A stretch of DNA of 44,892 nt, the filler included, from Jimgerdemannia flammicorona (lineage: Eukaryota): NCBI GenBank assembly GCA_003990765.1. It is 2 parts of 2 records of this genome, joined end to end, with 100 filler letters (N's around TTAATTAATTAA, not from the genome) between each part and the next. Parts side by side here need not be neighbours in the genome. Positions count along the whole stretch, not along the records: positions 1 to 22,396 come from RBNJ01001286.1; 1 more part is not named here. One strand, written 5' to 3'. This document shows, in pieces, positions 8,661 to 41,267 of this stretch. Every line of letters begins with the position of its first letter. The stretch's first letter is position 1. Both the position numbers and the translations under genes were made by a program. The notes beneath the pieces were generated by a model. That model was not told the origin of the DNA, searched no databases, and worked only from the letters and a program-made list of their open reading frames with translations.

Positions 8661-10339
8661 CTACCCAATCGTCTCCCGACCGCCCATCCAACCCCTCAGT
8701 ACCTCTGGTATCACGACAGTGCCGTCGGCGCGCTGGAAGTTCTCGAGCACGGCGATGATGATGCGCGGCACCGCGATTGCGGTCCCGTTCAGTGTGTGCA
8801 CGTACTCGAGGGCCGGGCCTTGCTTCGCCCCCGAGGAGGAGGTGGGGCGGTACCGGATGCTAAGCCGTCGGGATTGGTAGTCGGTGCAGTTTGACGTGGA
8901 CGAAATCTGGGTTGTAGATAGGATTTGTGTATTGGCGATGGTTGATGCGGGCGGAAAGGGTACAGCATGAAATGCAAATAGTGAGATAACTTGAGATTGG
9001 CTCACCTCGCCCCACCCGTTGCGACCGGGCATCCATGCTTCCATGTCATACTTGCGGTATGCGCTCGCGCCGAGCTCTTGAGTGGGCATGTCAAGCACCC
9101 TTTAATTTCGTAATGTATAAGTACATCAGATTGTGATTGAACTCGTCACACGTATTCCAAAAGTGAAATACATTTGGGCACGCCTCACCTAAAACAAAGG
9201 CCCAGCTCGTCAAAGATGTTCTCCTGCAATGTCCTAATCTCCTCCATCATTACCTCGCTCCCCTCCGGTGTCGTCAACGCAAACAACTCGACCTTAGAGA
9301 ACTGGTGCACGCGGTACAACCCCTTCGTATCGGCGCCCCTCGCCCCAGCCTCAGCCCTGAACGCCCTTCCGAACCCCACCATCTTCACTGGCAGCTCCCT
9401 CTCGCCTAATACCCGCTTTGCATACATGCCCGCCAGCGGCACCTCTGCCGTCCCTGCCAGGCACATACGCGATGCCTCAGACCCCTGTGTCGCCGTGCTT
9501 ACGTCGTAGATCTGCGACATCTCCCCTGCCCGCGGCTGGAACCCGCACGCGTGGGTCATCTCTGTCCGCACTACGTCAGGCGTGATCACGGGCGTAAACC
9601 CGCAAGACCGTGCCTTGCTCATCGCGTATTGAACCAGTGCGAGCTCGAGAAGAGCCGCGTCGTTCTTGAGGTAGTAAAAGCTCGTGCCGGAGACGAGCGA
9701 GGCTGATTCCAGATCCAACAGGTCGTGCCGCCGCGCGAGCGTCACGTGGTCCTGAAGTTCAAACCCAGCCGTTTCGTTTGTGTTAGGGGTGCCGACGATC
9801 TTGAGAACTCGGGCGTTCGGTTCAGGGCCGATGGGTGCTGATGAGTGGGTGTCGTTAGGGATCTGAAGGCCCTGGCGTAGCAAGAATTCCTCGGTGGTGG
9901 CGAGCTCGGCCTCGGCGGTCTGAATCGTATCCTTGAGACGCTTGCCTTCCTCGATGAAGGGTTGACGTTCTTCGGGTGAGGGGGCATTTTTAGAGAGTGC
10001 GGAGAGCTCGTTACGACGACTGCGTAGGCCGTTAAGCTCGGTGACGAGGGAAGTGTATCGGGCGTGGAGCTGAACGACAGCGCGTATGTCGACACCCTTG
10101 AAATTGCGGTCACGGATGTTGAGGGCGATGGCATCGACGTTCTCGGCGAAGTGTCTGTAATTGAGGTGGGGCTTCAGGAGGGCGTGGCGAGGTAACGGTG
10201 GCGTGGGTTCCTCGTGGTGGCTCTTTTCGGTGCAGTTCGCGCGTCTCGAGGACGTAATGGCGGGCTGAATGATTGTTCTTGAGTATGAGAGGCCAGCGAG
10301 GCTTTTGGTTGTGAGGCGATATGCCGACGCGTTGAACAT
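8661..10339 (-). CDS. Seryl-tRNA synthetase, mitochondrial type (DIA4/SARS2-like); 3 exons (10339-9189, 9099-9006, 8906-8661)
   Basis: Basic N-terminal presequence, coiled-coil arm, and class II motifs [15 protein letters not shown]...[53 protein letters not shown]. Confidence 0.92.
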
Positions 10340-10396
10340 TTGTCGTCTTGTCGCGTGCTCGCGTGCGGTGGGGATGAGTAGATGACGTCACTCGGC

Positions 10397-10483: not shown

Positions 10484-12152
10484 ATGGAACACAACTCCGG
10501 CCCTTTCTACACAAACTCCGTCCTAGATACTTTCAGGTTTGTTCTTCATTTTCAATTTCCCCCCCACCTGCTGCCCCCATTATGTCACCCCCCAACTAAT
10601 ATGTCCTGTCCGAAAACAGTTACACATGGTCCATCAAAAACTTTCCCCTCGTGCGCAAGATATACCCCACCGGGAAGGATCTGCTCAGCAACACCTTCTG
10701 GTGTCCGCCTCCGCCCGAGAACGAGAAGGGAGATCAGGGATCGGGGTTCAATCACGGAAGGGTGGATCGGAGGAGGCCGTTTTCTTGGGTGTTGAGGTAT
10801 CTCGTCATGTTTATCCCATGTGTACATCGACCAGGATCTAGCTCATGCAGCCGATATCCCTTATTTCCTCTAGTCTCTATCCATCTGGCAACACACATGC
10901 AGGCGACCACGTCGCCTGCTACCTCAAAGCGATTCCAACCGATGATGAACAAAGCCGCCCCTGGAAACGCGACAACATCAATCTCGTCCTCGAAGCCTAC
11001 GCCGTCGTCCCTTCCTCTTTTGAAACCGCCACCCCCCTCGACAATTACGGCGAGGACATCCCCGCGGACTCGACCTGTCTCCCGAACCGGAAAACCTCGC
11101 TGACCGTTGGCAGCATGCGCAACAACGCCGTCCGATTTCGCCCGCTCCCCAACGACGGCCAGATACACACCATTCTCATCGAGCGGTGGTCTGGCGGTGA
11201 GATTGCTTGGGACAGGCAGATCCTCGACTGGGGGCGAAGAAGGTTCTTCCACCAGAGCCGGCTGCCCAAGAATCCTCACTCGGACGGCCGAATCGAGCCG
11301 TACGACCTCCTCATCCGTGTGCACATCCTCATCAATTCCCCGCTCTCGGATGCTCAACCTGAGCAAGATCCCCTCGCCAGTTACGACATCTCAAGCCCCT
11401 CCCGATCGCCTACCCCTATCTCCGAAATCCCTGCCCACCCAGCCATGACCACACTCATCTCCGCAACCAACCTTCCCACCACCGTCCCTCCCACCCCCAC
11501 CCCTACCCCCACGCCCGTACCCCTAACTCTCGACCTTACACCTGCAGTCGACGACCCGCGCTTCAGCGATATCATCTTTGCCTTCGACGCGGATCCGCGT
11601 CCCCTCCGCGCGCATCGCGTCATCCTCGCCTCCCGCTCCAACTACTTCTCCAACCTCCTCTCCACCGCCTGGGCCGAAGACACGCGCGCCACGGTCCAGA
11701 TTGGCGGCGGGATGCGCTACGAAACCTTCCGCTCGGTCCTACACTACCTCTACTCGGGCCGTCTCCGCGAGGGCGAGGACGGGTGGGACGCCTCGCTCCT
11801 GCACGACGTATACCGCGCAGCGGATATGTACGGGATGGAGGGGCTGATGACATGCGCGGTGGAGCGACTCGCACGTGTGAGAGTCGATGAAGAGAACTGG
11901 GAAGGGCAGATGGTGTTTTCTTTCGAGTGGGGGGTTGAAAGTGTCAGGAAGAATGTCGTGCGATGGATGGTGGAGAATTGGGGAATCGTCGAGAGTGGGA
12001 ACGGGTTAAGTAGGGTGTTGGCCACGGGGAATGTCGCGTGGTTAAAGGAGGTGTTGGTCCAGGTGGGCATAGTAGGGAAGGTGAATAGGGGACCTGAGGA
12101 TAAGAGAAGGGAGAAGATGGTGAAAGACGGGAGGAGAAATACTTTTGGGTAG
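10484..12152 (+). CDS. MATH-BTB/POZ (SPOP-like) cullin-3 adaptor; 3 exons (10484-10536, 10620-10796, 10874-12152)
   Basis: MATH-like strands FSYTWSIKNF...SNTFW...WVLSLYPSGN...DHVACYL. BTB motifs FSDIIF...LRAHRVILASRSNYF...FRSVLHYLYSG...AADMYGMEGL. Confidence 0.8.
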
Positions 12153-12984
12153 CACGGTAAGTGGTTCTACCCGAGCTGTTCAATGGGCAATTGACGGAAA
12201 GAATGCTTTATTTTAATGGCTTGAATCAATAGGTGTATACATTCTGTTTAAATCCAAAACTTAAAGACTTATCCTGGCGATCTGAATCAGATCGCCTCTA
12301 GAGCATTAATTCGCAGTCGCGATATTTTTGCCTACAAAAATGTATTTTTTTTATTTAGAAGTCCGAAGCTCGCACTCGAAGTAATTATATTCAGCTTAGC
12401 AAGTTTAGCGTCAATGTTCTTGGCAAATCTTGTATATCTTTTAATTATACAAATGTATTGGCCCGTGTTCATGCAAATATACCCTCCACTTCCCCCAGAT
12501 CCATCAGCCTCGCCCCACCGGTTGATCGACGGCCCATTGATCCCTCAACTCCACACCTCCACTTATCTTTCACTCAAACCCCTCTCCTCTCCATCTATTC
12601 AGTGCTATTGCCTTTCCATCATGCATCCTTTTTTCTGGGATATAGTCATACAGACCAAGGATATCCCCCAAACAGGTGGGCCAACCGCATCCGGTTGTAT
12701 TGTTCTCAGCGTCGGCGGGTTGCTCTTTTTTTTTTTTTCTTTTTTCCTATTCACGACGATTACGCGCACTCCTCCTCGTCATCACACGGACAATGGAGAT
12801 TAAACCACCCGCGTGCATTATCGACATATGGGGCCCGAAACCAGATTTCAAAATTCATGCGCATTTTTTTCACACAAGCAATCCGATATGATTTCGGGGG
12901 GCTAGGACAAAGATCCCATGGGAGTCAACATTACGTGACAACTAAGGCTTTGTAAATACTGGAATCTCGGGTTCAAACTATGGG

Positions 12985-13280
12985 GCATGATCGCATGGCC
13001 CATCGGCGTACCATCCGCAGCTAGCTCCCTATCCCACATATGGCCAAACTCCGAAGCGTCAATCTTCCCATATAGCGGCCTGCCCAGCTTGATGTGCTGG
13101 GCACAGCCATCCGGGTACCCGCGTCAGCCGGTCGGGGTGCGATCAGGTTTGGCGGTCAGCTTTGTTCTTGGATTCGGACAACCGGTGCAGATCGCGGGTA
13201 ATGTTACAGACGCTGTGTACGTTGTATATTCAGTACAGGTTCGACGGGAAGGTTGGAGTCGGGGGTACCGCGCATGATGG
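12985..13280 (-). pseudogene. Degenerate F-box-like gene fragment (paralogue of 22050-22260)
   Basis: SNLPVEPVLNI followed by stops and frameshifts. The nucleotide block gcacagccatccgggtacccgcg...gtcgggg...tttgttcttg is shared with 22097-22180. Confidence 0.45.
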
Positions 13281-13731
13281 TGAGTTCGTGACAATGAGAT
13301 ATTTGTAAAATGGAGAGAACAGGTATTATGTAAGGGCGTGGAGAATTCATAGAAACGAGTGTGGTGTCGCAGCTCGTAAAATTGGGTAGTGGCATTTCCT
13401 GTTTGGTCATGAGATTGGGTCAATTACCTTTTCCTCCTCCCCTTTTTCCTTTGTCGCATTGCCCTTCGCTCCATAATACCTTTTCTTGTAAAATGATTGG
13501 TCAATTTCACTGTTTTATCCGCCTCCGTTAAGTCCTCCTCCATCCCTAGTATCCCAACATGGAAACTGCAAATTCGTGACCCAAACAATTGTACTCCACC
13601 CAGTGATGTGAATCAAATGTAAATAGAAATAAAATATCTGAATTTTGAAAGGCGACAAATGCTACATTTAACAGCAACTGAGAATAAAACGGGCGGAAAA
13701 GTGATATTTTGTATATATGCGGGGGAGTCGA

Positions 13732-16700
13732 TCAGGTCGCCCTCGCATGGAATTTAATCACAACGGATTCCCTTACCCCAGATCTCTCGACAAAGGCATC
13801 CGCCGACACCTCCGTCGCTCCAAATTGCATGTCCAACTTGATGGCCTTGTTTTGTAGCGAATGGTCACCTTTAAGAAGTTGTACTTTCTGCTCCATCTTG
13901 ACGTACGCCTGCCTGATTCCATCGCTGGAGTCGGCGACATTGAAGACCTCGCAGTACGTATTGCACTCATCCGATTGACACAGCTTTACGAGCTCTGCGT
14001 TTAGATCGACGTTCCCCGCAATCGCCAGGATCATGCGGAAGTTGGGGACACTTGGGTTCTTGAGGATAGTGGATAACGTGGAGAATTCGATTTTGGAGTC
14101 GTTATCTTCGCCGTCGGTGGACACTAGGAGGATGTTCTGATATTCTTGCTGGTCCGAGCTGTCATCGCGCGATCGAAGACACTGGATTCCTTCAACGATG
14201 GCGTCATTCAAGGCGGTGAAGCCGGACATCTTGATTAGTATTCGATTTGTATCCGTGTCGTGAGATAGGCCAAAACCAATGGGTGTAACCGTAAAATCGT
14301 CAATGTGCATTTCGATGTCATTTGAATACGGTTGAATGGAGCTATGATTGTAAAGGGGTGGGTATGAATGAGTGGGTTGTTCAGCGTTTAGTGGAGTGCA
14401 ATGTATACAAATGGAATTCAAGTAAACCTGAGTGTTTCGACAGTCGATGAAAATTTGATGAGACCGACTTCATCGTTCTGTGAAAGTTTTTCGCACACCA
14501 ATTTCAGCCCTTCTTTGGAACTGTCGATCTTGTCGTCCTCGCTCATGCTGGCGCTTACGTCTTGAACAAACAAGATTCGTACAGGGAGTTGTATGGTGTC
14601 GTCTTCGGCGGGGGGTTCTGCATTTCTGGAGAGCGGCACTTGTAACGTAGCCGCAGGTCGCATATCAGGAAGCATGTACTTCTGATTTGGTAAATCGGTT
14701 GTGTACAGTTCCAGTGTGGCATACTCTTGCGCCGTGCTGATTGGAATGAATCTATTCGCACGAACAACAAAAATGACGTAAGGAGTCACTTCGATATCGC
14801 AATCAGGAGACGGTAGACAAGAGATATATGAAGTCCACATACACGGTCGATATAACTTCCTCGATGCCCACTTGTTGATCCACATTGACAACAGCGTGAA
14901 ATAAATTTTCCGCATAATACTTTTGTGCATTCTGATATATCGAGTAAACGGGTGGTCAAATTAGCGATATGTAGATACGGTTTGATTGCTTCAACAAATT
15001 CCACATGTATTAAGAGAATCCACAAGCGTGGCGATATCGACCGTTTCGCCATTTATGATAATGACGAGAGCTGAAAACTACGAACCTCGTTCCATTTCTT
15101 TGCAGCTTCTCCAGCCGGATTGTCAGGAGTCCAAGGACCGGAAGTTTTGATCCCATAAGCGAGGCGAGAACGACGGCTACAGATGAATCTATTGATTTTT
15201 GTTTTCGTGGTTATTGCTTGTTTACATGTTTTTGGGACAAATGACTAATTGATACAGTTCTGAATTCTGTGCATAAATTGAACTTAACTACTTACTGCGG
15301 AAACTTTCCGTACAACGCAGCGCCCTTGACAACAGCTCCACCGGCATCACTGGGTCGAAACATCTGCACACGGGACTCGAATCTTTCCTTGGCCTTTGTC
15401 CACAGGTATGCGCTATCTGAGAACCCTCCGACGAAGAACATCTTGTCAATCTTGCAATCGCCGACATTATTGGAGCCTCTTTGCCTAGCTAGGGCCTTAG
15501 CGCTGCGGTCCAATTGAAGTTCGACCAAGTCCAAGGTAGCGTCAACGACGGTATTGAACATGCTGAAGAAATCTGTGGCGGTTAGATCGATTTGGTCAAG
15601 ATCTTCATCCTCATCACTGTCACTATCAAAGTTCGGGTGGTAGCTGGAAGTGTCGTTCTTTTTCATCAATCGGCGCAATTTAATCGGAGTTTGGATGGAT
15701 TCGTAGGTGTCAGGATTTCCAGTGAAATTACGCTGTGAGGTTGAGGTGCCAAAATTCGAAGGACATGTATAATTAACAAATACGTTGCCAAATGTTTCGT
15801 TTTTTTTTTTTATAGCAAAAATCATCGTTATATATACCTTGAGTTCCTCCCAACATTTCATTACTTTCAGCCAATCCGCCGTGTGCAAAGTGCGAAGTTC
15901 ATCTATGTTTTGCCTACCGCACTTGGTGTTTAGAAATTTAATGAAAGCATCATCGATAAATGTGGATCCACAAGATTTGCCACTGCCATGAGATATCTCA
16001 CGCAAGCGTTGAGCGCCGGAATCTGGGTCGTGAAGGACTTCATGAGCAGTCTTCAAAATGGCAAGGTCAATTGACCAGGAATTAATAGTCGTTTTCAGTA
16101 TTCCATATAGACGAGAGAAGCAGCGATCATCTCTTACCAGATCGATAGTTCCGCCACCGGCATCTACCACCATGAAAGTTTGCCCCGGTACCAGCAAGTT
16201 CTGCTGTGATTGTTGGCAACAGTACATAGCCGCGGCTTCCGGCTCCAAAACGATATTCAGTCGATCCGAGTTATTTTTATCCTCTTCAGAAACCTGGCAC
16301 ACGGTTTGGGCATTTTGACGATTAGTTGACTGTTATTTCGTTAGATTCTATAGTTTAACCAAATAGGAAAAGCCCCTCTTCCTTACCAGTTTCGCTATTA
16401 CCGCGGCCTCTCTCATGTCTTGCTTCGCCTTTTCTGACCACATCGCAGGTACGGTCAAGAACCATACCACGTTCTCCTTACTCACAGTGTCACCCCACTT
16501 CGTGTCGATATCCTTCAAAATGACCTTATATATATGGTGCAAATAATCACCGATTACTTTCAATGCATCGAGACCTTGCGGAAGGGGTGGCAAAGTCGGT
16601 GCAACCTCCTCGTCAAGATAGAGCTTAAAGCGATCAAGATATTGATGACCTGGGTCAGCCCTATTGCTCATACTGTTTTTCCTTGCTGTATCGCGTGTTG

Positions 16701-17158
16701 GGTAATGGTGATAGGATGAAAACCGATTTGTAAAGAGTTTCGAGGGCAAAGTTAAACCATAGGACAAAAACGAAGTGTATAAATAGTACTGATTATATAC
16801 CACTATAGCCCCAGCTCTGAACGGAAGGACTTGATGTGTTGGAATCACACTTGTATCGGAGAGCTGTAAGATTCTTGGGGTATTGGGCAGGCTGGTCCGG
16901 CCATGAATACTTGGACTCGATGATGTTGGAGGAGTCTCCAATATGCACCTGTTTATGTTGAGGCGTTAGTTGCATTTTCTCGTATGATGAAATGAAAATG
17001 TTCGCCAAGTAAAACCACAGCCACGATGCTCCGACGCTTACCATCCCGTACCCCGAGTGAGTAGTTCCAAAATCAATCGCGACGATAAGTCGTGCTTGGA
17101 GGCCGAAAACTGGCTGGGTATGCGTCTGGCTTCCCTGAGACGGCATGAAGCTGGCCAT
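13732..17158 (-). CDS. HSPA12-type atypical Hsp70 with an inserted von Willebrand factor A domain; about 10-11 exons
   Basis: Actin-like ATPase motifs IVAIDFGTTHSG, FLTVPAMW, LEPEAAAMYC, VVDAGGGTIDL, CGSTFID, FVGGFSDS, AVVKGAALYG, SRRSRLAYGI. vWA motifs ILFVQDVSASM, GFTALNDAI, ILLVSTDGEDNDS. C-terminus LDMQFGATEVSADAFVERSG. All segments can be joined by GT-AG introns in frame. Confidence 0.8.
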
Positions 17159-18157
17159 ACTGTATGGATTATCTCCTAAACTTTGGAGGATACAAATGAA
17201 TATTTCCGTATGTATCATGATGGCTTCTCCGCCGGTCTAGTCTTGGCAGCATCCTAGAATACTGGACTATACTGCCGATGATAATACATACGTAGTTTCT
17301 GAATACTCGAGTATAGGTCGTCAAAAGGTTATTCCGAGTAATACTGTGTTGTAAATGAAGGGCGAACTTGGTGGGCAACAAACTACAGGAAGAGATATGC
17401 AACGGATTGGTATCTTTTCCCACCACTTTGTTTGTACATTCCACCAATGTCAGATGATTGATTGCATGAACAAAGCCTTTGTCAACATTTTCGCGCCAAA
17501 CCGGAAACTGCCAAACCAAATATACAACTTTACTTGATTTGAACTATTGCGATCACAACACAGATGCTGCGAGGCACGGTTCTATCATCACATCATTATT
17601 ACCACAAAGCATGAGAATATTTGGTGTTGGGCACATTGCTAGCGTTGAAATGTTGGATTGCTATGCATGGGGATCATCGGCAAGGATCGGGGCTTCTGCA
17701 GGTGCAGGGAGTCTCCTTTTAAGGTTCGTCGAATGCGGGGTAGTATTCCCAATCTGGAATATGGAATATCGCAATCGAATCCCTCAACTTCGGACCGCCG
17801 CAGTTTCTGCTTGACTCCGAGTAAGGATTCTTACTGAACTGTTCGTGTCAGTGTGCGCGAGTTATCGTCTTGGCTGAACACAATTCTTGAACACATATCT
17901 TTCCTATTATAGGTGCAAGCAACCAACTGCCAAACCAATTCAGTAAGCCACGAGCTCTTACTGCTGCGCCGCCGCCCGTGCCAAATGTATGACAATGATC
18001 TCCTCCTATCCTGACCCCGCAGACTCGTCACCCGCCTATTATTGTCGGAGGACAAGATTCAGGTTTGTGGTGGATTAGGACATACCTCAATACTTGGAAT
18101 CCACTTTTTCTTTTCGTACGTTATTGTTCATCACACCCCAAACGCGAAGCTCGTAAA

Positions 18158-20215
18158 ATGTCATCTCTATTGAATAACAGGCAACAAGAAGCATCTCGGG
18201 GAACAACCGACAAGAGGAGTCAGTCAGCGACCAAGACCGATTCGCAGAAAGGAGGGCACGGCAAACCGTCTAGAAGCAAGTCGGAACAGCCCGATGTCGG
18301 CGCTTCGATCTCGGGTTCACCTTCTCAAGACAGGCAAAGCCGAATGCAAAATTTTTTCGCTCTCGTCAACGTATTCGTTTTCAGCGAAAAGAGGTCTACA
18401 GCCAAGATACCAGTTTTTTTGGCCATCGTCGACGTATTCGACTTCCACTATTTGGGAAAAGAACCTCGAACCGCCACAGGCATCTCAACGACAATTCCTC
18501 CAGATCCAAAATATGGAAACATTACGAAGCATCAAGGTCAGCCGGGCCATCAGAACAAGGGACCCTCCAATCCTAGCCATTCCACCGAGTCGAGAGTTGA
18601 CGTTGATCAAGAAATTCTCGACGCGCTGGAAGCTCAGAATTCATTGCCGAGAGGCAAGACGAAAGAATTTTTCAAGCGGATCTCAGACTGGGCCAAGATA
18701 TACAAAGAAAATAGTCGTTTAAAGGGACTATTCTATGACGTATCCGATGTTCTACAGCAACAGAGGGAGAATTTCAAAGAAACCGTAGCTAACTGGGAGC
18801 GCGAAAAGGCGGAATGGCAGAAGCAACTTGCGGAAATGGAGGCCGAGCATGTAAAAACACGTGAGAACATTAAAGACGAGGGCGCTCATAAAGCCGCCAT
18901 CGAGGATGTGCGTCACGATTGTGAAACACGTTTGGTTGAACTCGAGATGGAGCACCAACGCTCGATACAAGAGATCGAACGCTTGAAAAACGTCATCCAG
19001 CTTCAGTTCGAGCCCGAGCATCACCACCGTCTCCGCGAAGAGATCAAGATCGAGTTCCAACAGGAGCTATCGAAAGCCGAGCAGCAGATTGCGCATCTGA
19101 CATATGAAAAGGATCGGCACCGCGAACAGAAGGAAGACTATCTAAACCGCATCGAAAAGATGAACATCGAGCGATCGGAGATCTACAGCAAGATCATGGA
19201 CCTGGAGAAGAAGTTAGTCCTCGAGATGAGCTTCCGTCCGCAAGAAAACCAAGCGGCCACCGGTATTTTCGCGATGGACGGCGCTAATCCCATGACGCTC
19301 AACCAGACCTGGCCAAAGGTGTACATGACGATGCGCAAAGCAGTGGAGAACATGTTCAAACAAGGCGCGCTGCGGACCGATGTCATTCACGCGCGATACG
19401 ACGAACTGCTGCGACACGCGACGATTCCGACCGATCGAACCGGGAAGCCCGGCAAGTCCGTGCAGAAGCGCTTGGTCGAGCACGCCATCAGCGTCAAGCT
19501 CGCCGCCATCTGGGACGTTATTCTACTGGACGAGGGCGGGAGGGTGGAGCGTAGTGCGGGCGAGGCCATCTTCCCGGAGATCGAGAAGGCGTTCAAAGAA
19601 TTGGGGTCACTACAGGATGGACAAGTGTCGGAGATGAGCGTGCTGGTAGGACGCATGAAGGCCGAGCTCGCCAGGCAGCTGCTGGGGAGGCTGCCCGTGC
19701 CGACGGATGTGGAGGTGGAGAAAAAGTTCAAGGAACAGCCGGATTTCAACCCGTTCGTCGGGCTCGGGTCCCGATATGGCGAGCAGATGCGCAAGTTCTG
19801 GCGGCAGATGGCCGAGACCGTGATTCAGACACTGGCCGAGTTTACTGGCGAGAGCACGCTGGAACAGTGGATGTTGAGTGTGTACTTTTTGGTATACACG
19901 TGCATTCATGTGCGACTGCAGATGGAGGCCATTGGGAGTGGGGGAATGATGGTGTTTTTTGCGGGGAGCACTATTGACTGTCTGGCCATCTTGAAGGAAG
20001 AGCAGAGAGGGAAGTCCGGGTCCAGTGTCGTGTTAGAGAGCGAGCTACATGATGCCGTTGAGTCCATCAATCGATCGAAAAGGGGCGAAGAGTGTGAGGA
20101 GGATAAGATGGTGTTCTTGACCGTCTTTCCCGGTGTCGCCAATGTGAAGATGAATGATGGGCGGATTACGATCGATGAGCAGATTCAAAAACAATGTTTG
20201 GTCTTGAGCTGTTAG
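18158..20215 (+). CDS. Intronless 685-aa protein: disordered N-terminus, long coiled coil, helical region and GrpE/MIEAP-like C-terminal motif
   Basis: Uninterrupted 2-kb ORF with an E/K/Q/R heptad-rich middle. The end reads LESELHDAV...MVFLTVFPGV...IQKQCLVL. The ORF is secure; the domain call is by eye. Confidence 0.7.
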   Translation: MSSLLNNRQQEASRGTTDKRSQSATKTDSQKGGHGKPSRSKSEQPDVGASISGSPSQDRQSRMQNFFALVNVFVFSEKRSTAKIPVFLAIVDVFDFHYLGKEPRTATGISTTIPPDPKYGNITKHQGQPGHQNKGPSNPSHSTESRVDVDQEILDALEAQNSLPRGKTKEFFKRISDWAKIYKENSRLKGLFYDVSDVLQQQRENFKETVANWEREKAEWQKQLAEMEAEHVKTRENIKDEGAHKAAIEDVRHDCETRLVELEMEHQRSIQEIERLKNVIQLQFEPEHHHRLREEIKIEFQQELSKAEQQIAHLTYEKDRHREQKEDYLNRIEKMNIERSEIYSKIMDLEKKLVLEMSFRPQENQAATGIFAMDGANPMTLNQTWPKVYMTMRKAVENMFKQGALRTDVIHARYDELLRHATIPTDRTGKPGKSVQKRLVEHAISVKLAAIWDVILLDEGGRVERSAGEAIFPEIEKAFKELGSLQDGQVSEMSVLVGRMKAELARQLLGRLPVPTDVEVEKKFKEQPDFNPFVGLGSRYGEQMRKFWRQMAETVIQTLAEFTGESTLEQWMLSVYFLVYTCIHVRLQMEAIGSGGMMVFFAGSTIDCLAILKEEQRGKSGSSVVLESELHDAVESINRSKRGEECEEDKMVFLTVFPGVANVKMNDGRITIDEQIQKQCLVLSC

Positions 20216-20513
20216 GAAGCGATTCATGGTAATTTTATTCTCTCAGTTTTTTTCTCTTCGATGTTTATGTAAGTCGACATTCACTCACTCATCGCGCGAA
20301 ATTTCTATTCATAGATAATCATGTTTTTTTTTTTACTTTCTTTTTCTTACCTGCACATGACAGGTGAACAGCACATACAGTGAGTATCGCGAGTGTGGCG
20401 ATATTATTATGGCAATGCTCACCTCGACCTGATTGCTTATTTTTCCTCTCTTTCGTAAGGCGGGTAGTGGAGTTTGATGTTTCAATGAAATAGCTGAAGC
20501 TAGGGATCTTGTC

Positions 20514-22258
20514 TTATCTGGCTTGATTTCCTATTGCATGTTGTTTGGCCATGTGTAAATACATATGTCTATAAACTTGACTTCGCAGATCTAGTCGGTT
20601 GATGATGGGATTTAACAAGAGGAAAGGGGAGTGATGTGTTAAGCATCGCCCAAGCTTCGTGATGATGTCACCGGTAGGAAAGTCATCTCGATACCTCGCT
20701 AACGCCCAAACTAAGGATTGCATGTGAGTTTGCAGATCCCTTTTTTAGACCCTTTGCACCTCGTAAATATTATAAACGAAACCAAGTTTCACAAGCTGTC
20801 GGTGTTCACCCTGTCCTAACGCTAGCGCTCTGGGTACTCGAGGAGTAGGACACCGGGTGGGTCGAGATGAAGACGCGTCGTTAATCGGGTTATCGAAGCA
20901 GGGAACAAAGATATAAATATGAGCACATCGCATTCTAAAGCAGACTGAGCCGAACGCATATCGTCTTCACGGACCAGCAGCACGCTCGACGAGTTGGGGC
21001 TGAAGTCGATGCAAAGGCAGGATCACATACTACTCTACCGATTCGAAGGGAATAGGATGGCGCATCCTACTGGGCCGTCTCCCCCGCTCTATTGAACAGG
21101 GTCGTCGAGTTCGAGATTACAGATGAATGCCATGATGCCAGCGGCCATGTACAATTGTTGTGTGTGCTGAAGAGTGTGCTGCGACAATCCGCGCATAGTC
21201 TGTGTGGAGGAGTTGATATCACGGATGGTTTGGTAAGGGGCGATGAGTTAACGATATGAATGGTGGGTTCTTTTTTGCGCTGTGTCGGTTTGCTGTAACC
21301 TTTTTTGGGGGGAGGGGGGAGGGGGTCAACTTGGACCTTTCACCACTGTCGGCTTTAAAACTGTTGAAACCACTGAACTACACAGCAAACCAGTTTGGCA
21401 GCAGATATATTAGATTCATATTTTATTTTCATATGAAGTAGTAAACTCCGAGTTTCCACTTTGCTGCACCGTTCTCAATGTCACGAAACATACCTGTCAT
21501 TACCGGCGGGGTTCAATTGCCGACACACGTCGACCATGAGTGACTGCGAAGACCGTAGTCCGGCGAACCCATCAGGATCCGGGAGAAAGCTGCGCGCTCT
21601 TGCGGAGTGAAGCCGGTGGTTCTTGGGATGGAGTTGAGATGTGGTAGGTTGCGAAGGATGAGAAGATGTCGATAGATCGGCGCAATTAGAAGGAAGAGGG
21701 TAAATAAACGAATAATGGAGGAGATGGGGAAGGATAACATATACTTTTCGTTCCCCTTCAGCTTTCGCGAGGTTGTTCTCCTTATGCGCAACGTTCAGAT
21801 CCCTGATTTTCAGGTTGAAAAATGGGAAAGCCATGTCAGAAAAGAATAACGTGTTCCTCAATCAACCCTGTCTGCAGACCTCGTCATCAGCTCACTTCTT
21901 TTCCAAATCCCAAATCGCTCTCCCCTGCTCCTCTCCTCAAGAAAACGACATACCCACCCCCCTCCCTTCCAGCTCTCTTAACCACTTCTCCGAACACGCC
22001 ACGCTCGCCCAGCCGCGACAAGTCCTGACCGGCATTGAGCACGTAGCAGGGGCCGGATGACCCATCGGCGCGCCGTCGTCGCCTGGACGATTTCATGGCA
22101 CAGCCATCTGGGTACCCGCGACGGCGGGTCGGGGACGATCGGGTTTGGTGGCCCCAATGACGCGTCAGTTTGTTCTTGTATTTGGGTCGACGAAGAAGGG
22201 AAAGTATAAGCTCGACGGGTAGGTTGGAGTAGGGGGCACGCGTGAGAAAGGGCATTGA
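20514..22258 (-). pseudogene. Decayed F-box(/LRR-like) gene
   Basis: MPFLTRAPYSNLPVELILSLL is an F-box-like start. Downstream broken fragments include LLILRNLPHLNSI and a CP-LEY-like segment. No continuous frame; the 3' extent is uncertain. Confidence 0.4.
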
Positions 22259-22396
22259 ATATGTTTGGGAGTTCAAGGGGAATATTGGGTCGCAGCCGTG
22301 CCAACAGCGGTGTAATGAAGCTTGTGGAATGGGTATCGTTTGTGTTGTAGGATATAATAAAATTAGATAGTACATTTCCTATTTTTTTTTTTTTTT

Positions 22397-22496
22397 NNNN
22401 NNNNNNNNNNNNNNNNNNNNNNNNNNNNNNNNNNNNNNNNTTAATTAATTAANNNNNNNNNNNNNNNNNNNNNNNNNNNNNNNNNNNNNNNNNNNN
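22397..22496. other. Assembly gap/linker (44 N + TTAATTAATTAA + 44 N)
   Basis: A symmetric N pad around a 12-mer with stops in all six frames; artificial. Confidence 0.95.
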
Positions 22497-23057
22497 CACC
22501 GAAGCAGCACCCGCCCCAGCCCCGACGACCGCCCCCAGCCTGGCACCCTACTGGTTCACCGTAATCGCCCTTCCGCCTATCTGTGACGGCCATCTCCCCT
22601 CCCATCCCGACAACACCCGAAAAACAGTCACCTACGCCAGAACCGCGCTCGCCGGGAAGCTCGCCAAAGCCAGAGGGCCCCACCACAGGCACCGAAGACC
22701 TGCAGGTAACCTACACTGAGCACTTGACGCCCAAGGTCGGCCGACTCCCTACGCAGCCCGAGACACACCGAGACAACTCCTTGTTGGCGACGGCAAAAGG
22801 AAGAAGGCGCCGCACCAAAACGGGTACACCCCAGACGCAGCCGAAGGCACCAGAATCCGCGAAAAAGTGGAGAAGACACCGATCCGACACCGATAAAAGG
22901 GCAACTCATCACCATTGCCTCCCTCCCACTGCCCTGCAACAGGTACAGCAAACCAACCCGAGGTAGAGGGGGTAATAATTGTGGAAAGTGGACTCGGAAG
23001 GTTGCCTACCAAACCATTGTGACCGGTAAGGTAGTGGAGAAAGGGGCGGTCGGACAC
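22497..23057 (-). mobile_element. Probable 5' end (UTR + ORF1 start) of a LINE
   Basis: G-rich on the minus strand with CpG retained. It begins with ttaccggtcaca...ggcaac, similar to tcaccggtaaca...ggcaac at the 5' end of the LINE at 39240, and encodes a Gly-rich peptide. Confidence 0.4.
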
Positions 23058-25568: not shown

Positions 25569-28500
25569 CAAGGGACTTAGAGCAGAATGTTCAGAACTAT
25601 GGGGGCTTTATCATCAGAGGTCAGAATGTCTTCAAAGGAGATGAGGTTCACGAATTTGTCATCATCATTGTTGTCATCACATAGGTCATGTGTCTCATGT
25701 ATGTCATGTATTTCGCATGCTTTGATGTCATGTGGGATGACATCATCACTGATGACATCATCACGTTCAGCGGCGGAAAGGAGGTCTGGAGCTCTCCAGT
25801 CTATGAGGTTCTCTTCCACAAAATAGTGGGGTCTTGGGGAGGTCTAACCTGGATGCTTGGGCCTTAGAATACTGAGATCAATCTTTACAGGAATTGGTCT
25901 GAGTTGTCCTGAAGGATAGGATGCCAGAAGTCTTCTACTTTATCACTATTGAGGGTGATAGTGGACTGGGCTTCTGTAGCCACCCTGGCTTCTAGTGCAT
26001 TGATACAGCAGGATGACAGGTCTCTGAAGTCTGAGACTCTAACATACTCCAAGTTGGGGATTGACCATGGTACATGCCTGAAGATCTGATGGATCTTCTT
26101 AGCTGTCCTCATTTCACATATATCTATGGGAGTGACATCTTATAGCTCTTGAGTGCTGGCCTGTGGGAACTCCTGGTAGAGGAGGTTTCCTATTTCATAC
26201 TCCTGCCACATTTGGAGGCATTCAGTAGCAATGGTGATCCTTGTTTCCATTTTACAGTGGTAGAGGATATAGTGATAAGAGTCACCAGTACTCAGGTTGA
26301 TACTAGGAGTCCTTCTTAAGCAGGTTCTCATGGCTCTTCTGATGTCTTGGAACATCTTTTCTTCAACCAAGGTGCCTTAGTGATTCCTTGACCTTGAGGT
26401 TTGGCAGGTAGCAGGCATTTCATTGGTAGTGAGTCTTTGAGCTATTTTGGGATTGGTGGGTCTTGTTGATTGCTGTTACTGCAGTTCTTTGATTCTTCTT
26501 TTATATTTCTCAAGATGCTTATACTGTGGTCACAATGACTCACAGTTGGTCATTGTTGCTCATCTCATATACTGTATGATCTTCTTGTGCTCCAATCTAG
26601 TAACTTACAAGGAAAGACTGTCTCCTGTACTGATGTCATCATTCTGGGATCACTATTACATCTTCCTTCTGAATAAGGATCTTCTCGAGCATCTTTATTC
26701 ATTAGTCCAGTCTTGAAAAATTTGCTGATCCCATAACCTCTGGCAAGGGGTCAAAAAGTGGTGTTTATGGGCTGACATCTTCTCTTTGTATTTTGGCATG
26801 ATGGTGAAGGGTCACTTCCTTCATATAGAGTAAGGGCCTGATTCTGATCTTGACCAATCAGTTGATGGTTCAAACTCCTCTGGCTTCGAAAGTCTCATAG
26901 ATGAGTAGTTGCTGGTGCCATATCTCTTAGAGAATGGTCCAGACAGATAGCCTACTGGTTATGGGACATGCTGTTATGATTCATGGACTAGAACCTTGCA
27001 GGTGGTCATCATGTTTTGCTTCTCTTATATAGGTTTGTGGTACTTCTTGAGTCTGTTCCTATGTATCATGATAGGCAGTATAGTCCCTGAGATTTTTCTA
27101 AGCCAGAAGGTAGTTCTCTTGATATCTTGCACATAGAAGGGTCCTTCTCATTTGGGCTCCAGTTTTTGCAACCATGAGGCTTCTACCATATTTCGATATA
27201 GTAGAACCTTTTCTCCAATTCAGATGGGTTCTAGGGTCTTGTGATTTTTTTCTGCATTCTTCCTTATCAGCGCTTATGACTTGATAATGTAATCTTCTGC
27301 CTTCTTTCTGATTTAGTGTAGTCTCCGGGTTTCTGCATCGACCCATCTCCAAGTTAGATCTAGATTTGTGGCTGAGGTTCCATCAGAATCTTCTTCTCCA
27401 AAGAGCAGTTCTCTTGGGGTAAAGTGTGTGCTCTGTGACCATATGTCTTATAGGATAGAGAGGGCAGTTGGGAGATAGTTATCCCAATTCTCATATGTCT
27501 CTGAGATCTTTGCTAGGATGTTCTTGAGGGTCTTATTGATTCTCTCTGTCTGTCCATTTCCTTGAGGGTGGTACATGGTAGTCTTGATGTACTGGATCTT
27601 GTATTTCTGATATATTATCTCATGGAATCCATTGACAAATTCTGTGCCATGGTCTGTTGTGATTTGCTTTGGTGTCTTGTAGTGACAGATAATTTCTCAG
27701 TACAAGAAGTTAGCTATAGAGAGGGCATTGGCTTCTTGTAATACTCCTGCTTCTATCCATTTGGTGAAGAGGTCTACAATAACTATAATATAGTAGTTTC
27801 CTGATAGTGTTACTGGTAGTAGCCCAATGATATCCATTGCAATGTGGTGGAAGGGGATAGGCTCAATTCTTGATGACCTGGGTGCCTGGTCTTGCTGATC
27901 TTATTTCTGTTTTTGGTACTTGTCACACTCTTTGACAAATTGGCATAGGTCTTCTTCTATCTTGGGCCACCATATGGTTCTTCTTGCTTTGTTATATGTA
28001 TTGGTTCCTCCTAAGTGTCTTTGCTCGTGTACTTCCTTCATTACTTGATACTTCTTGTGTTCAGGTATTACTAGCTTTCCTCCTTTTCTGAGTGTAGTAT
28101 TGTCTAGTTCAAACTGTTTCCAAGTCCAGTTGATGATGGTGATTGTCCAGGGTTCGAGGTGGTTGAGTATCTTCTGCTGCCCAAGGTAGCTGATTAATCC
28201 ATAATATAGCTCCTTATTCATGTTGAATAGTCTTGATGGGGTGTGTTTTGGGGTATCCTTGAGAGTGTATCAGCATTGGTGTTAGTTCTTCCTGAGCAGT
28301 ATTTGATAGTACAGTCATACTCTTGCAGCCTGTAGATCCATCTGATATATATTCCTTTAGAGTTCAGAGTGTGGAATAGCCAGGCAAGAGCAGAATGGTC
28401 TGTTTGAATAGTGAAGTGTTTCTCAGCTAAATAGAGTGGAACTTGTCTACTGCCCAAACTACTGCTAAGCATTCAAGCTTGTATGACTTGTAGTTCTGTT

Positions 28501-29734
28501 CTGCTCTATAGATACCTCGGCTTGCATAGGAGATGACATATTCATGTCCATCTTTCTTCTGAGCTAGGACTGCTCCAAGTCCTATGGCACTTGCATCTGT
28601 CTGCAGGATGAATTCTAGATTCCAATCTGGTCTTCTGAGGATAGGTACTTGGATCAACCTGGTCTTGAGTTTATTGAAGATTTCTTGGCATTCCTTAGTC
28701 CATTCGAATTTTGTTTTCTTCTTCAGTAGCTCGTAGATAGGTACTATAATGTTGGAGTATCCTTTGATGAATCTTCTGTAGTAGCTGGCCAGTCCAAAGA
28801 AGGCATGGACTTCTGTGGTTGTTCTGGGTCCCAGGTAGGCTGCAACAGCCTCAATCTTCATGGGGTCTGTCTGGATTCTGGTCTGATTGATGAGGTGTTC
28901 TAGATAGGTGATTTCTTGAGCTACAAACTTGCATTTCTTGGGTTTGATGTAGAGGCCATGCTCCTTGAGCTTCTTGAGGGCTAGCTGTATGTGATTGACA
29001 TGTTCTCGTACAGTATTGCTGAAGATGATCACATCATCAATATAGACAAAGAGCCATTTTCCAATTTCATTGCTAAAGACTCTGTTCATCATTCACTGAA
29101 AACTTACTGGGGCATTGCACATTCCAAATGGCATTTGCAGGTAGATATAGGTGGCATCAAGTGTGATGAAAGCTGATTTCTCACTAGCATCTTGAGTGAG
29201 ACCAATCTGATGGAAGCCTGAGAACAGATCCAAGGTGGTGTAGTATTTGGCTTTGCTTCCAAGAGTGGTAAGGATTTCTTGAATATTTGGCAAGGGCTGC
29301 CTATCCTTCTTGGTGATGGTATTGAGCTTCCTGTAATCAATACAGAGTCTTGGTGCAACTCTCCAAGCTTGCTTCCTTTCTTCAGGGCAAGGACAATGGG
29401 TGAAGCCCAGGAACTGATAGCTTGCTTGATGATTCCAGCTTCTTCTATTTCCTTGAGTTCTGCTCACAGCCATTCTCTGTAGGCAGGTGGTATGGGTCTG
29501 GCTTTCTGATAGATGGGCTTGGTATCACCAGTGTCAACTTTGTAGTAGTACTTGGGTTCTTGATTGTGGATATCCCTAAAGTCTGTAGCAAGTACTCCTT
29601 CATTCTGGTGCAGGATCTTGAGAAGTTGTTCCTCCAGGGGAAAGTTTTCTCCAATGGTATATGTGTGCTTATTCTGGTCCTTGTCTTTCTTGTGCTTAAG
29701 TTCAGTAATCTTGGTGGCAGTATAGGCTCCTCTT

Positions 29735-30150
29735 CCAGTAGATCCAAAGCCTTGTTCTTCTCTCTTAGTCTTGATAAGTTTGATGGCTTCTATGATCTTG
29801 GGCTTCTTGACTTCATGGATCATCATCTGGCCAATCCTGTCATACTTCTTGACTTTGAATGGGGTGGTGGGGTTGTAATTTCTGACTATGAGGAAGATCT
29901 CACCAGTGTAATCAGGGTCAATTACTCCTCCTTTAACTGAGATTTCACTTTTGGCCAGACTGCTCCTGGTCTTGATAATTCTGGTATGGTTTTCTGGCAA
30001 CTTGACTCCAATTCCAGTGCCAAGTAGGGTGGTAGTCTGTGGTTCAAGAGTAGCATCTTGAATGCTGGTAAGGTCTATTCCTATGGCTCCTTCAGTCTTG
30101 TATTCTGGGATCTTGGCTTTAGGGTGAAACTTCTTGACCTTGAGGGTTAT
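29735..30150 (-). CDS. Retroelement-encoded trimeric dUTPase domain (within pol)
   Basis: Motifs GAIGIDL, RSSLA, GVIDPDYTGEI, DRIGQM and REEQGFGSTG, in the expected order. Confidence 0.92.
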
Positions 30151-31544
30151 GTCTGTTTCTTGTTCCTCCTTATCATCACTGTCAGCCTGAAGCTCTGGGG
30201 GCTGGTCATCTTCTTTGGCTTTCCTTTTTACTTTAGCAGCTTCTTGCTCATGTTTCTGTTGGCAGATTTTCCTGACTTCACTGATAGGACCAGCAGTCAT
30301 TCAGGTATTCAGAGCAGTACATCCTAGTACCATGGGGGCATCTTTCTTGAGGGGTATAGCCATCAATGATCTTGTTGTACCACTGCTCATCTGTGAGCTT
30401 GGGTGTCTTGTTCTTGTTCTTATTCACTGAGTGCATGAAGACCTCTGTGTCCTCTTCATCTCCTTCTTCTATGTCTAGTAGGGCTTCTTTGTGGACATTG
30501 ATAGAGACTTGTACCTTTCTTCCTCTATAGTTGATCTGTATCTTCTAGGCATTGAGATCAATGATGGCCTTGGTCTTGTGAAGCCATTGGTTGCCAATGA
30601 GGATGTCATAGTTGGTGGTGCTTGTAACAATCATGTCTACTGGGATAGTAGTTCCTTCTATCTTGATGGGGACTTCTCATATTTTGCCAAGAGGGGTAGC
30701 TCATGTACCATCTGCTGTGACATAGACCATCTTAGTGGACTCTTCAATGTCCCAACCTAGGTAGTCAATTGTCTTCTTGCTCATGAGACATCCTCCAGCA
30801 TCAGTATCAATGATGGCATCAAAGATACAGTCTTCAATCTGACATGGGGTATAGGCTGATGTCTTGTGCTCGTCTTGGATGCTTTATCTGAGTTTTCAGA
30901 TTCTTCCTGTGTATTGTGAGCTTCTACAATCTTGTACTCTTGATTTTTGGTAGTAGTTGTAAGTCCTACTCTCAACTGCTGTCTGAAGGCAGGGACTTCG
31001 GCTAGTTGTCCAAAAGTAGCATTGACCTTCTGTTCCTTGAGATCCTTGTAGATATCATACTGGTGAATCTTGGTCTTGCACAGCTTCTGTTCCTTCTTGC
31101 TTTTGCTTTCTCCTGAGACTGGAGTAGTGCCTTCAATGATTTGGCAGGCAGCTTCATCTAACTCTATGTCTTGATCAATCTCCTCAGGTTGAGTCTTACT
31201 TTGAATAGTGATAGCTGGGGTCTTCTTTGGTCTTCCAACTGGCTTGCTGTTACTCTTCTTATCATAGGGCTTGGACCAGGTTCTGGTACCTTCAGTAGCA
31301 GGGTAGAATTCAAGCTCCTTGTAGTATTCTTCATCATCAGTATCACCAATCTCCTCAATGACTACTGCATTGATTTGTTCTCTGGTTCTGCTAGCATTGC
31401 TTGGTTGAGCTTTATGTCTTGTTTCAGTCATACAATTTTTTGCATAGTGGCCTTCTTCTCCACATCTAAAGCATGTGATATTGTATTCTTCTATAGTGGC
31501 TGCAAATCTCTATACTGGTCTCCTGTTGGCACTTTGGACTTCTC

Positions 31545-41237: not shown

Positions 41238-41267
41238 ATTGTGATATCCCTACCAACATTATTCAAT

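Follow-up and report, generated by a model that had tools for sequence, protein, structure and literature searches.

Do two fungal genes that diverge from a common spacer, one encoding an atypical Hsp70 with a vWA domain and the other a coiled-coil protein, constitute a dedicated pair, and is the second protein related to GrpE? The locus that raises this question lies in a window of 44,892 nucleotides from Jimgerdemannia flammicorona (the whole stretch of DNA that was analysed, in which two parts of the assembly are joined by filler letters). The source is a root-associated fungus of the Endogonales (Mucoromycota), and the best protein relatives of both genes are from J. flammicorona and Endogone sp. 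FLAS-F59071. We give about an even chance to the reading that an old two-gene unit is present here as a lineage-specific copy, made up of an HSPA12-type Hsp70-vWA protein and a divergent coiled-coil partner whose C-terminus is a GrpE/MIEAP-type wing. The elements in question are as follows.

13732..17158, minus strand: HSPA12-type Hsp70-vWA gene, coding span, 831 amino acids in 10 coding exons (GT..AG introns, joints in RNA-type contigs, colinear relative)
18158..20215, plus strand: partner gene, intronless, 685 amino acids (685 open codons, unspliced RNA-type contigs, six relatives)
17159..18157, unstranded: spacer between the start codons, probable shared divergent promoter (999 bp, from the ATG positions)

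A first-pass annotation of this DNA described two intact genes with divergent start codons, and both points stand. The two ATG codons, 17158 (minus strand) and 18158 (plus strand), are separated by 999 bp, the plus-strand open reading frame (ORF) runs for 685 codons, and the minus-strand gene is represented by a 10-exon model of 831 amino acids. Contigs from four sequencing runs, X1 to X4, were aligned on positions 12800-21200; two runs are from one organism, for which the RNA label is a guess, two are root metatranscriptomes, and all were treated as RNA-type. Such contigs cover both genes, which are intact and transcribed.

Linkage in other Endogonales

The pairing itself, which the first-pass annotation had proposed to be a dedicated one, appears to recur elsewhere: the records of partner-family members P0024 and P0027 are numbered next to, or two away from, those of the Hsp70 relatives P0030 and P0004. 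P0024 (RUS16016.1, locus tag ..._91693) and the Hsp70-clade protein P0030 (RUS16017.1, ..._91694) are both on a 6979-bp contig and appear adjacent, and P0027 (RUS33172.1, ..._472786) and the Hsp70-vWA protein P0004 (RUS33170.1, ..._472784) are both on a 21526-bp contig and appear two apart, judging from accession and locus-tag order and from contig sizes. P0030 and P0004 are 55% and 49% identical to the Hsp70 of the window, and P0024 and P0027 are 38% and 30% identical to its partner, such that the order of divergence agrees between the two families. Because two further members appear beside Hsp70-vWA paralogues, the two genes look as if they are inherited as a unit, and a linked Hsp70-vWA/partner module is likely.

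Two points weigh against this conclusion. Adjacency in the other genomes comes from record numbers, not from the DNA itself, and partner paralogues P0002, P0025 and P0026 are without an Hsp70-vWA neighbour among proteins of 430-1371 amino acids (the best 120 of 904). The contig that carries the Endogone Hsp70-vWA protein P0003 (3980 bp) is too short for both genes. A supposed co-variation of the short vWA domain of P0004 with a non-acidic loop in P0027 was dropped, as the other J. flammicorona assembly has the full-vWA form (P0143, 797 amino acids, in the same 90% cluster as P0004).

The HSPA12-type Hsp70-vWA protein

The minus-strand product was annotated at first pass as an atypical Hsp70 with a vWA domain, and this identity is confirmed by its nucleotide-binding motifs, a Pfam VWA_2 match and a complete metal-ion-dependent adhesion site (MIDAS). 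Its domains are arranged as listed.

15412..17080, minus strand: nucleotide-binding (actin-like ATPase) motifs, mapped in the spliced product
13879..14582, minus strand: vWA domain with complete MIDAS, residues 578-783, interrupted by the intron 14342-14427 (Pfam VWA_2 and VWA)
13735..13851, minus strand: terminal HSPA12 beta-hairpin following the vWA domain (last 37 amino acids compared with C-termini of vWA-less chytrid proteins)

The N-terminal 480 residues contain the phosphate-1 motif AIDFGTTHSG, TVPAMWS, EPEAAA, the phosphate-2 motif DAGGGTIDL and the adenosine motif VGGFSDS, in columns that are invariant or nearly so in an alignment of 30 HSPA12-like proteins. Relatives are annotated as HSPA12A/B-like, "actin-like ATPase" or "Hsp70 family". 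Pfam HSP70 (PF00012) does not match the nucleotide-binding exons of the window gene, presumably because the HSPA12-type branch is so diverged: P0003 scores 14.7 bits, below the cut-off of 20.6, and retrieves no canonical Hsp70 at E<=0.01 in a phmmer search of PDB sequences, and the more distant relatives P0127 and P0138 pass the Pfam cut-off. A DnaK-type substrate-binding domain or lid is absent; in its place is a short beta-rich C-terminus, with no further Pfam domain.

The vWA domain is recognized by Pfam VWA_2 (PF13519; 33.3 bits against a cut-off of 27) in exon 14428-14930 and by Pfam VWA (PF00092; E 6.3e-5, 23.7 bits against a cut-off of 23.8) in the last exon, and P0003 scores 46.6 bits with VWA. 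MIDAS residues are provided by DVSAS, the T in GFTALND and the D in STDGEDN, and the corresponding motifs of P0003 align to the vWA domains of ITIH1 and ITIH4. Three chytrid proteins without a vWA domain, P0005, P0006 and P0007, have extreme C-termini to which the last 37 amino acids align (z 6.2-9.2, with none of 200 shuffles reaching the score), which means that in Endogonales the vWA domain is an insertion before the terminal hairpin. In Willaertia magna P0127 and in P0138, the vWA domain follows the hairpin. Since it is inserted in one lineage and appended in the other, the Endogonales and heterolobosean Hsp70-vWA architectures are probably two independent fusions. J. flammicorona also has vWA-less HSPA12-like paralogues, P0101/P0145 and P0144/P0146, whose accession numbers are consecutive in both assemblies and which thus form a tandem pair. 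The long HSPA12-like proteins P0013, P0031, P0033, P0041 and P0096 have no MIEAP or GrpE domain.

The coding exons are 17158-17042, 16948-16801, 16685-16387, 16293-16138, 16050-15838, 15732-15296, 15188-15086, 14931-14843, 14751-14428 and 14341-13732, and the stop codon is at 13734-13732 (minus strand). All nine coding introns have GT..AG ends, and eight have joints in RNA-type contigs (CT..AC on the plus strand). For the ninth, 16949-17041, support consists only of loose contig ends whose letters continue into the neighbouring exon. Splicing of this transcript is visible in the two root metatranscriptome runs as well, and the 831-amino-acid product is colinear with the 783-amino-acid P0003 (54% identity over 839 columns). 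Two introns fall outside the coding span, in the 5' and probably the 3' untranslated region (UTR).

17181..17291, minus strand: 5' UTR intron of the Hsp70-vWA gene (joint 17180->17292 in X1, X2 and X4; GT..AG)
13213..13427, minus strand: probable 3' UTR intron (13212 and 13428 are joined in an X2 contig that reaches the coding end at 13797)

The ends of the latter intron are CT..AC on the plus strand and thus GT..AG on the minus strand. Alternatively, 13213-13427 could belong to a separate downstream minus-strand transcript that overlaps the end of the Hsp70-vWA transcript. A 60-nucleotide in-frame stretch at 14230-14289 (minus strand) has the ends GT...AAG and a TACTAAT-like branch site, and the 20 residues that it encodes are missing from P0003. 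Its assignment as an intron was rejected, and it is treated as coding, because contigs of X2, X3 and X4 still contain the sequence; the stretch is either a loop inserted in the vWA domain or an intron that is seldom spliced out.

The partner protein

The partner gene is covered by unspliced contigs at 18023-19144 and 19266-19919. Indels are multiples of three in 5 of 5 rows inside the ORF versus 2 of 7 outside it, among the rows listed (two further rows are unseen). The predicted protein is divided into four regions.

18158..18646, plus strand: disordered, poorly conserved N-terminus, amino acids 1-163 (predicted local distance difference test, pLDDT, <50; unalignable among relatives)
18650..19231, plus strand: long coiled-coil stalk, amino acids 165-358 (predicted helices 165-183, 189-283, 290-336 and 342-358)
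19268..19957, plus strand: conserved helical domain, amino acids 371-600 (domain model with a predicted template modelling score, pTM, of 0.79)
20024..20212, plus strand: C-terminal tail, amino acids 623-685, resembling a GrpE/MIEAP beta-wing (hhalign to the bacterial partner tail)

For the full-length protein, AlphaFold predicts a disordered head, coiled-coil-like helices and a folded C-terminal part (mean pLDDT 56). When residues 371-685 are folded alone (pTM 0.79), the model consists of a good helical domain, a poor loop (domain residues 235-282) and a short terminal beta-hairpin. The tail carries the motif L-H-x-A-V ... T-V-F-P-G-V ... R-I-T-I ... C-x-V-L-S, and is preceded by an acidic stretch, E-E-x-E-E-D, that is conserved in most family members.

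A phmmer search of 1.84 billion representative proteins yields a family of seven: the window copy, four further J. flammicorona proteins, one from Endogone and a 253-amino-acid fragment. The six with a recorded source are from Endogonales, to which the family is confined. A metagenome scan with a narrower alignment, A3, in which 109 patterns were matched, found no relative of the partner. No known relative of the helical domain 371-600 was detected in fold searches (none at E<=0.001 with Foldseek; best VIA Z 5.8 over 43 residues).

Bacterial HSPA12-like ATPases and their neighbours

A scan of prokaryotic genomes with the HSPA12-like alignment retrieved 80 loci, mostly from filamentous cyanobacteria and actinobacteria, whose ATPases are 26-34% identical to the fungal one. 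When neighbouring genes were clustered, two ORF families stood out whose members start only a few bases downstream of the Hsp70 gene, one at 25 loci and the other at 23. An ORF of the partner family occurs within 3 kb in 75 of the 80 loci, and is directly downstream on the same strand in 73; the hidden Markov model (HMM) behind these counts was built from three clusters, and 50 of the 75 positive loci contributed training sequences. The actinobacterial partners belong to the same family as the cyanobacterial ones (hhalign Prob 97.7%, E 2e-12), as the third cluster probably does, judging from profile similarity (Prob 55%, E 1.2e-4). Long ORFs that resembled natural Hsp70-partner fusions were rejected, as they are upstream extensions in another frame and lack Hsp70 motifs.

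Cyanobacterial partners have a coiled coil and a middle helical part, and end in a conserved tail. The tail motif of the bacterial family is [FL]-x(3,4)-H-[ED]-A ... T-[VI]-[YF]-P-G-[YV] ... [AC]-x-V-x-[TS], and L006:8306-8770 and L009:8831-9286 are examples of its ORFs. An alignment of 19 such tails, A6, matches canonical GrpE proteins from the same genomes (Prob 96.4%, E 1.2e-9). Pfam GrpE is detected in 6 of the 19 members and Pfam MIEAP in 8 of them, the best being L006 with 28.2 bits, the sole member above the cut-off of 27. The MIEAP matches cover the last 60-110 model positions and always end at position 195 of 195. Because the bacterial tail matches both families, these profile comparisons suggest that the animal MIEAP domain is itself derived from GrpE.

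Is the fungal tail a GrpE-type wing?

The fungal alignment, A2, matches the cyanobacterial partner family with Prob 60.5% and E 8.4e-5 over 37 columns, and matches A6 with Prob 51-57% and E 1.1-1.5e-4. The matching part is the tail, where L-H-x-A-V, T-V-F-P-G-V, R-I-T-I and C-x-V-L-S are placed over H-E-A, T-V-Y-P-G-Y, R-V and A-x-V-x-T, and under relaxed hhalign settings the two proteins stay colinear up to their last residues. As controls, 13 other neighbour families compared with the fungal alignment gave Prob <=0.6% and E>=0.1, reversed alignments gave E 0.22-0.48, and the best of 30 column shuffles gave E 0.16. The segments of GrpE that contact DnaK are those bearing the tail motifs.

The first-pass description of the partner as GrpE-like is therefore borne out in part: the tail has a weak, same-register match to a bacterial GrpE/MIEAP-like tail (E 0.8-1.5e-4, with controls at least 0.1), but no Pfam, PDB-sequence or fold match. 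We hold with moderate confidence, from profile similarity, that the fungal tail is a diverged GrpE/MIEAP-type wing. A number of results count against this assignment. Among bacterial forms only the cyanobacterial one matches, over 30-37 columns at 51-60% probability; the actinobacterial partners (clusters 1 and 7) do not (Prob 0.4-0.6%, E 0.1-0.15). A merged bacterial-plus-GrpE profile gives Prob 27% and E 6.7e-4 with the fungal family, the fungal family compared with canonical GrpE on the equivalent segment gives Prob 1.2% and E 0.044, and an HMM of the fungal domain gives no significant hit among the 80 bacterial loci (best E 0.83). Pfam GrpE (PF01025) and MIEAP (PF16026) are found in 0 of the 7 partner-family members at E<=10, a threshold at which the proteins match coiled-coil families and the C-terminal domain matches none. 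A profile search of PDB sequences with the partner family returned coiled-coil noise only, and neither Foldseek nor VIA lists a solved GrpE, BAG or HspBP1 structure for the model of the C-terminal domain. The 230-amino-acid helical domain has no counterpart in GrpE, and the tail is poorly modelled, with residues 235-282 and 309-315 of the domain model at pLDDT <50.

A fold search with the model of the whole partner returned coiled-coil rows only. The order of a disordered head, a long helical stalk, helices and a beta tail fits GrpE-like proteins, with the tail poorly modelled. In atlas comparisons of residues 540-685, all below the bar of the tool, the nearest entries by features are GIL1_IRKI_C (0.80-0.83) and MIEAP (0.79-0.80), and those by structure are MIEAP (template modelling score, TM, 0.58), GIL1_IRKI_C (TM 0.55-0.60) and three GrpE clusters (TM 0.39-0.45). 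Among named families, the plant GIL1/IRKI C-terminal domain (PF24994, with DUF641) thus comes closest by features and also appears in the structural comparison; it could be a further member of the GrpE/MIEAP-like group. A complex prediction for P0004 (residues 15-667) and P0027 (residues 262-602), run without supplied alignments, scored 0.00, which speaks neither for nor against binding.

Possible mechanism and alternatives

If the locus is a copy of an old Hsp70-vWA/partner unit, the first gene would provide an HSPA12-type actin-like ATPase that lacks a canonical substrate-binding domain and has a MIDAS-containing vWA docking domain inserted near its C-terminus. The second would provide a coiled-coil protein prone to dimerize, with a highly diverged beta-wing of the GrpE/MIEAP type at its extreme C-terminus. 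By analogy with GrpE on DnaK, the partner tail might dock at the cleft in which the neighbouring Hsp70 binds nucleotide, and set the ADP/ATP cycle of this ATPase. From what is known of such domains, the MIDAS site of the vWA domain would hold a client or an anchor, and the ATPase cycle could be coupled to the binding or release of this vWA ligand. The weak homology and the near-constant bacterial pairing lead us to infer that nucleotide exchange is tuned by the partner, docked on the nucleotide-binding domain; a GrpE-type exchange function is plausible but unproven.

It is possible, although we doubt it, that the genes form a true functional pair in which the partner is not of GrpE type but serves as a coiled-coil scaffold, adaptor or client, and that the likeness of the tails is due to chance or convergence. 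Such a partner would meet the ATPase through the MIDAS site of the vWA domain or through its own helical domain. Conserved linkage speaks for this arrangement too, the direct GrpE and MIEAP tests all fail, the largest conserved part of the protein is a helical domain without known relatives, and the acidic E-E-x-E-E-D before the tail could be a MIDAS ligand. However, the tail match is about three orders of magnitude better than all controls and is in the GrpE register, and the bacterial relatives of the ATPase are nearly always paired with a GrpE-like partner.

A third explanation, which we consider unlikely, is that the pair is a conflict or surveillance module (for immunity, allorecognition or control of symbiosis) rather than a folding helper, with the vWA domain as sensor and the ATPase as switch. 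The larger neighbourhoods of the bacterial pair include genes for an AAA+ ATPase, a patatin-like phospholipase, a DUF4231 protein, a second Hsp70 and a radical-SAM protein, and look like a conflict system.

L013:2178-4760, L071:9148-10926, L078:11688-12233, L009:9436-11058 and L012:12167-12820: conserved neighbourhood ORFs of bacterial pairs

The first four of these protein types accompany the bacterial pair in a manner that agrees with such a role, and published prokaryotic conflict systems mix Hsp70-like, coiled-coil and MIDAS-vWA proteins, according to the available portions of PMC7159879 and PMC11090510. The fungal family is also lineage-restricted and fast-evolving, with the partner at 30-38% identity versus 49-55% for the Hsp70; several 90-99% variants are present in the sequencing runs, and the gene is situated among retroelements. 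Nevertheless, neither the fungal proteins nor the bacterial Hsp70-partner pair correspond to any PADLOC model, Pfam reveals no effector domain in the fungal pair, and rapid evolution and transposon neighbours are common in orphan genes. A role of the pair in immunity, allorecognition or symbiosis is speculation.

Finally, it is very improbable that unrelated genes merely share a bidirectional promoter region by accident: adjacency elsewhere is read from record numbers, and three partner paralogues are without a listed Hsp70-vWA neighbour (best 120 of 904), but two further adjacencies appear among paralogues diverged to 30-55% identity, and pairing is found in 75/80 bacterial loci.

Spacer and surroundings

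No heat-shock element is present in the 999-bp spacer with up to one mismatch allowed, and the 14 found across the window equal the number expected by chance (mean 14.6). Repeats in the spacer are short two-copy matches. The spacer bin 17577-17857 has no cover in run X2, with cover on both flanks. Contigs on 12800-21200 from run X1 number 151 at >=99% identity, 51 at 95-99% and 29 at 90-95%. In runs X1 and X2, many contigs are 90-99% identical to both genes, which means that several alleles or close paralogues of the pair are present in the organism or sample.

The first-pass annotation had placed the pair between decayed F-box-like remnants, a view that is not upheld: eight small flanking ORFs match no Pfam family at E<=1, and there is no F-box among the 17 larger ORFs of the window. 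A general Pfam survey of these larger ORFs also revealed no J-protein gene. The other features of the window are as follows.

9185-10384, minus strand: seryl-tRNA synthetase fragment (Pfam survey of larger ORFs)
10842-12149, plus strand: BTB-domain ORF (same survey)
28427-31506, minus strand: pieces of a long terminal repeat (LTR) retroelement (reverse transcriptase/RNase H, dUTPase and zinc knuckle)
41238-43445, plus strand: endonuclease/reverse transcriptase ORF of the long interspersed nuclear element (LINE) type

A run of N at about 22380-22500 was read as an assembly gap; the first of the two joined parts ends at position 22,396.

Significance and comparison with known systems

A dedicated, gene-linked partner would make the unknown job of HSPA12-type Hsp70s testable through binding and nucleotide turnover, and the fungal case places the Hsp70/partner pairing within opisthokonts, to which animals also belong. 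The inserted vWA domain suggests a way of directing an HSPA12-type ATPase to a target. A 2026 review describes HspA12 function as unknown and its mechanism as untested in the portion available (PMC13580251). We tentatively propose, while thinking it rather unlikely to hold in full, that HSPA12-type Hsp70s and GrpE-derived, MIEAP-like coiled-coil proteins are one ancient two-component machine that is operon-coupled in bacteria and gene-linked in Endogonales. In that case, the orphan chaperones HSPA12A/B would have a GrpE-type regulator in the MIEAP domain of animal Mieap/SPATA18, and repeated, independent addition of a MIDAS-vWA domain would mark the client-docking arm of the machine. Among open papers and preprints we found none that joins Mieap and HSPA12, and their titles and abstracts yielded no link between Mieap and GrpE, DUF641 and GrpE, or HSPA12 and GrpE. 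The accessible part of a 2025 review of GrpE-like factors contains 0 occurrences of HSPA12, Mieap or SPATA18 (PMC12987570).

The fungal pair resembles DnaK-GrpE in that the gene for an Hsp70-type ATPase neighbours one whose product starts with a disordered head, continues as a long helical stalk and ends in a beta tail, with the tail motif in the GrpE register. This order (disordered head, helical stalk, helices, beta tail) is the one given for GrpE-like proteins in the consulted sections of the 2025 review (PMC12987570). However, the window ATPase is of HSPA12 type, lacks the DnaK substrate-binding domain and carries a vWA domain, and its 685-amino-acid partner has an extra 230-amino-acid helical domain and no direct Pfam or fold match to GrpE. 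Also unlike the DnaK system, no J-protein gene is seen in the window. HSP70, GrpE and HSP70 reduced to the nucleotide-binding domain (NBD-only) are reported from GTPase-centred systems in the available part of PMC7159879.

A close parallel is the HSPA12-like/partner operon of cyanobacteria, actinobacteria and other bacteria, in which the partner is likewise a coiled-coil protein that ends in the same tail motif. The bacterial genes are co-directional and often overlap, whereas the fungal genes are head to head across a 999-bp spacer. Moreover, a weak vWA-like ORF is near the bacterial pair in only 1 of 80 loci, and the fungal partner resembles the bacterial one weakly and in the tail alone. 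Animal Mieap/SPATA18 is similarly a coiled-coil protein with a conserved C-terminal domain (MIEAP, PF16026), although Pfam does not detect that domain in the fungal family. Mieap is described as a mitochondrial quality-control protein, and not as an Hsp70 cofactor, in the portion of PMC11036304 consulted.

Heterolobosean fusions (Willaertia magna P0127, and P0138) also combine an HSPA12-type domain and a vWA domain in one protein of ~780 amino acids, but with the vWA domain after the terminal hairpin rather than before it, as in Endogonales. Other machines that combine an ATPase with a MIDAS domain are the MoxR-vWA pairs, such as RavA-ViaA, and midasin. These share with the Hsp70-vWA protein an ATP-driven domain coupled to a MIDAS-type vWA domain that holds a protein ligand, but the motor in the window would be an actin-fold Hsp70 domain instead of an AAA+ ring. 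MoxR-vWA pairs are described in the part of PMC7159879 that was available. Relative to these systems, the Endogonales pair is distinctive in its head-to-head arrangement, in a vWA domain that is inserted and not appended, and in a far more diverged partner.

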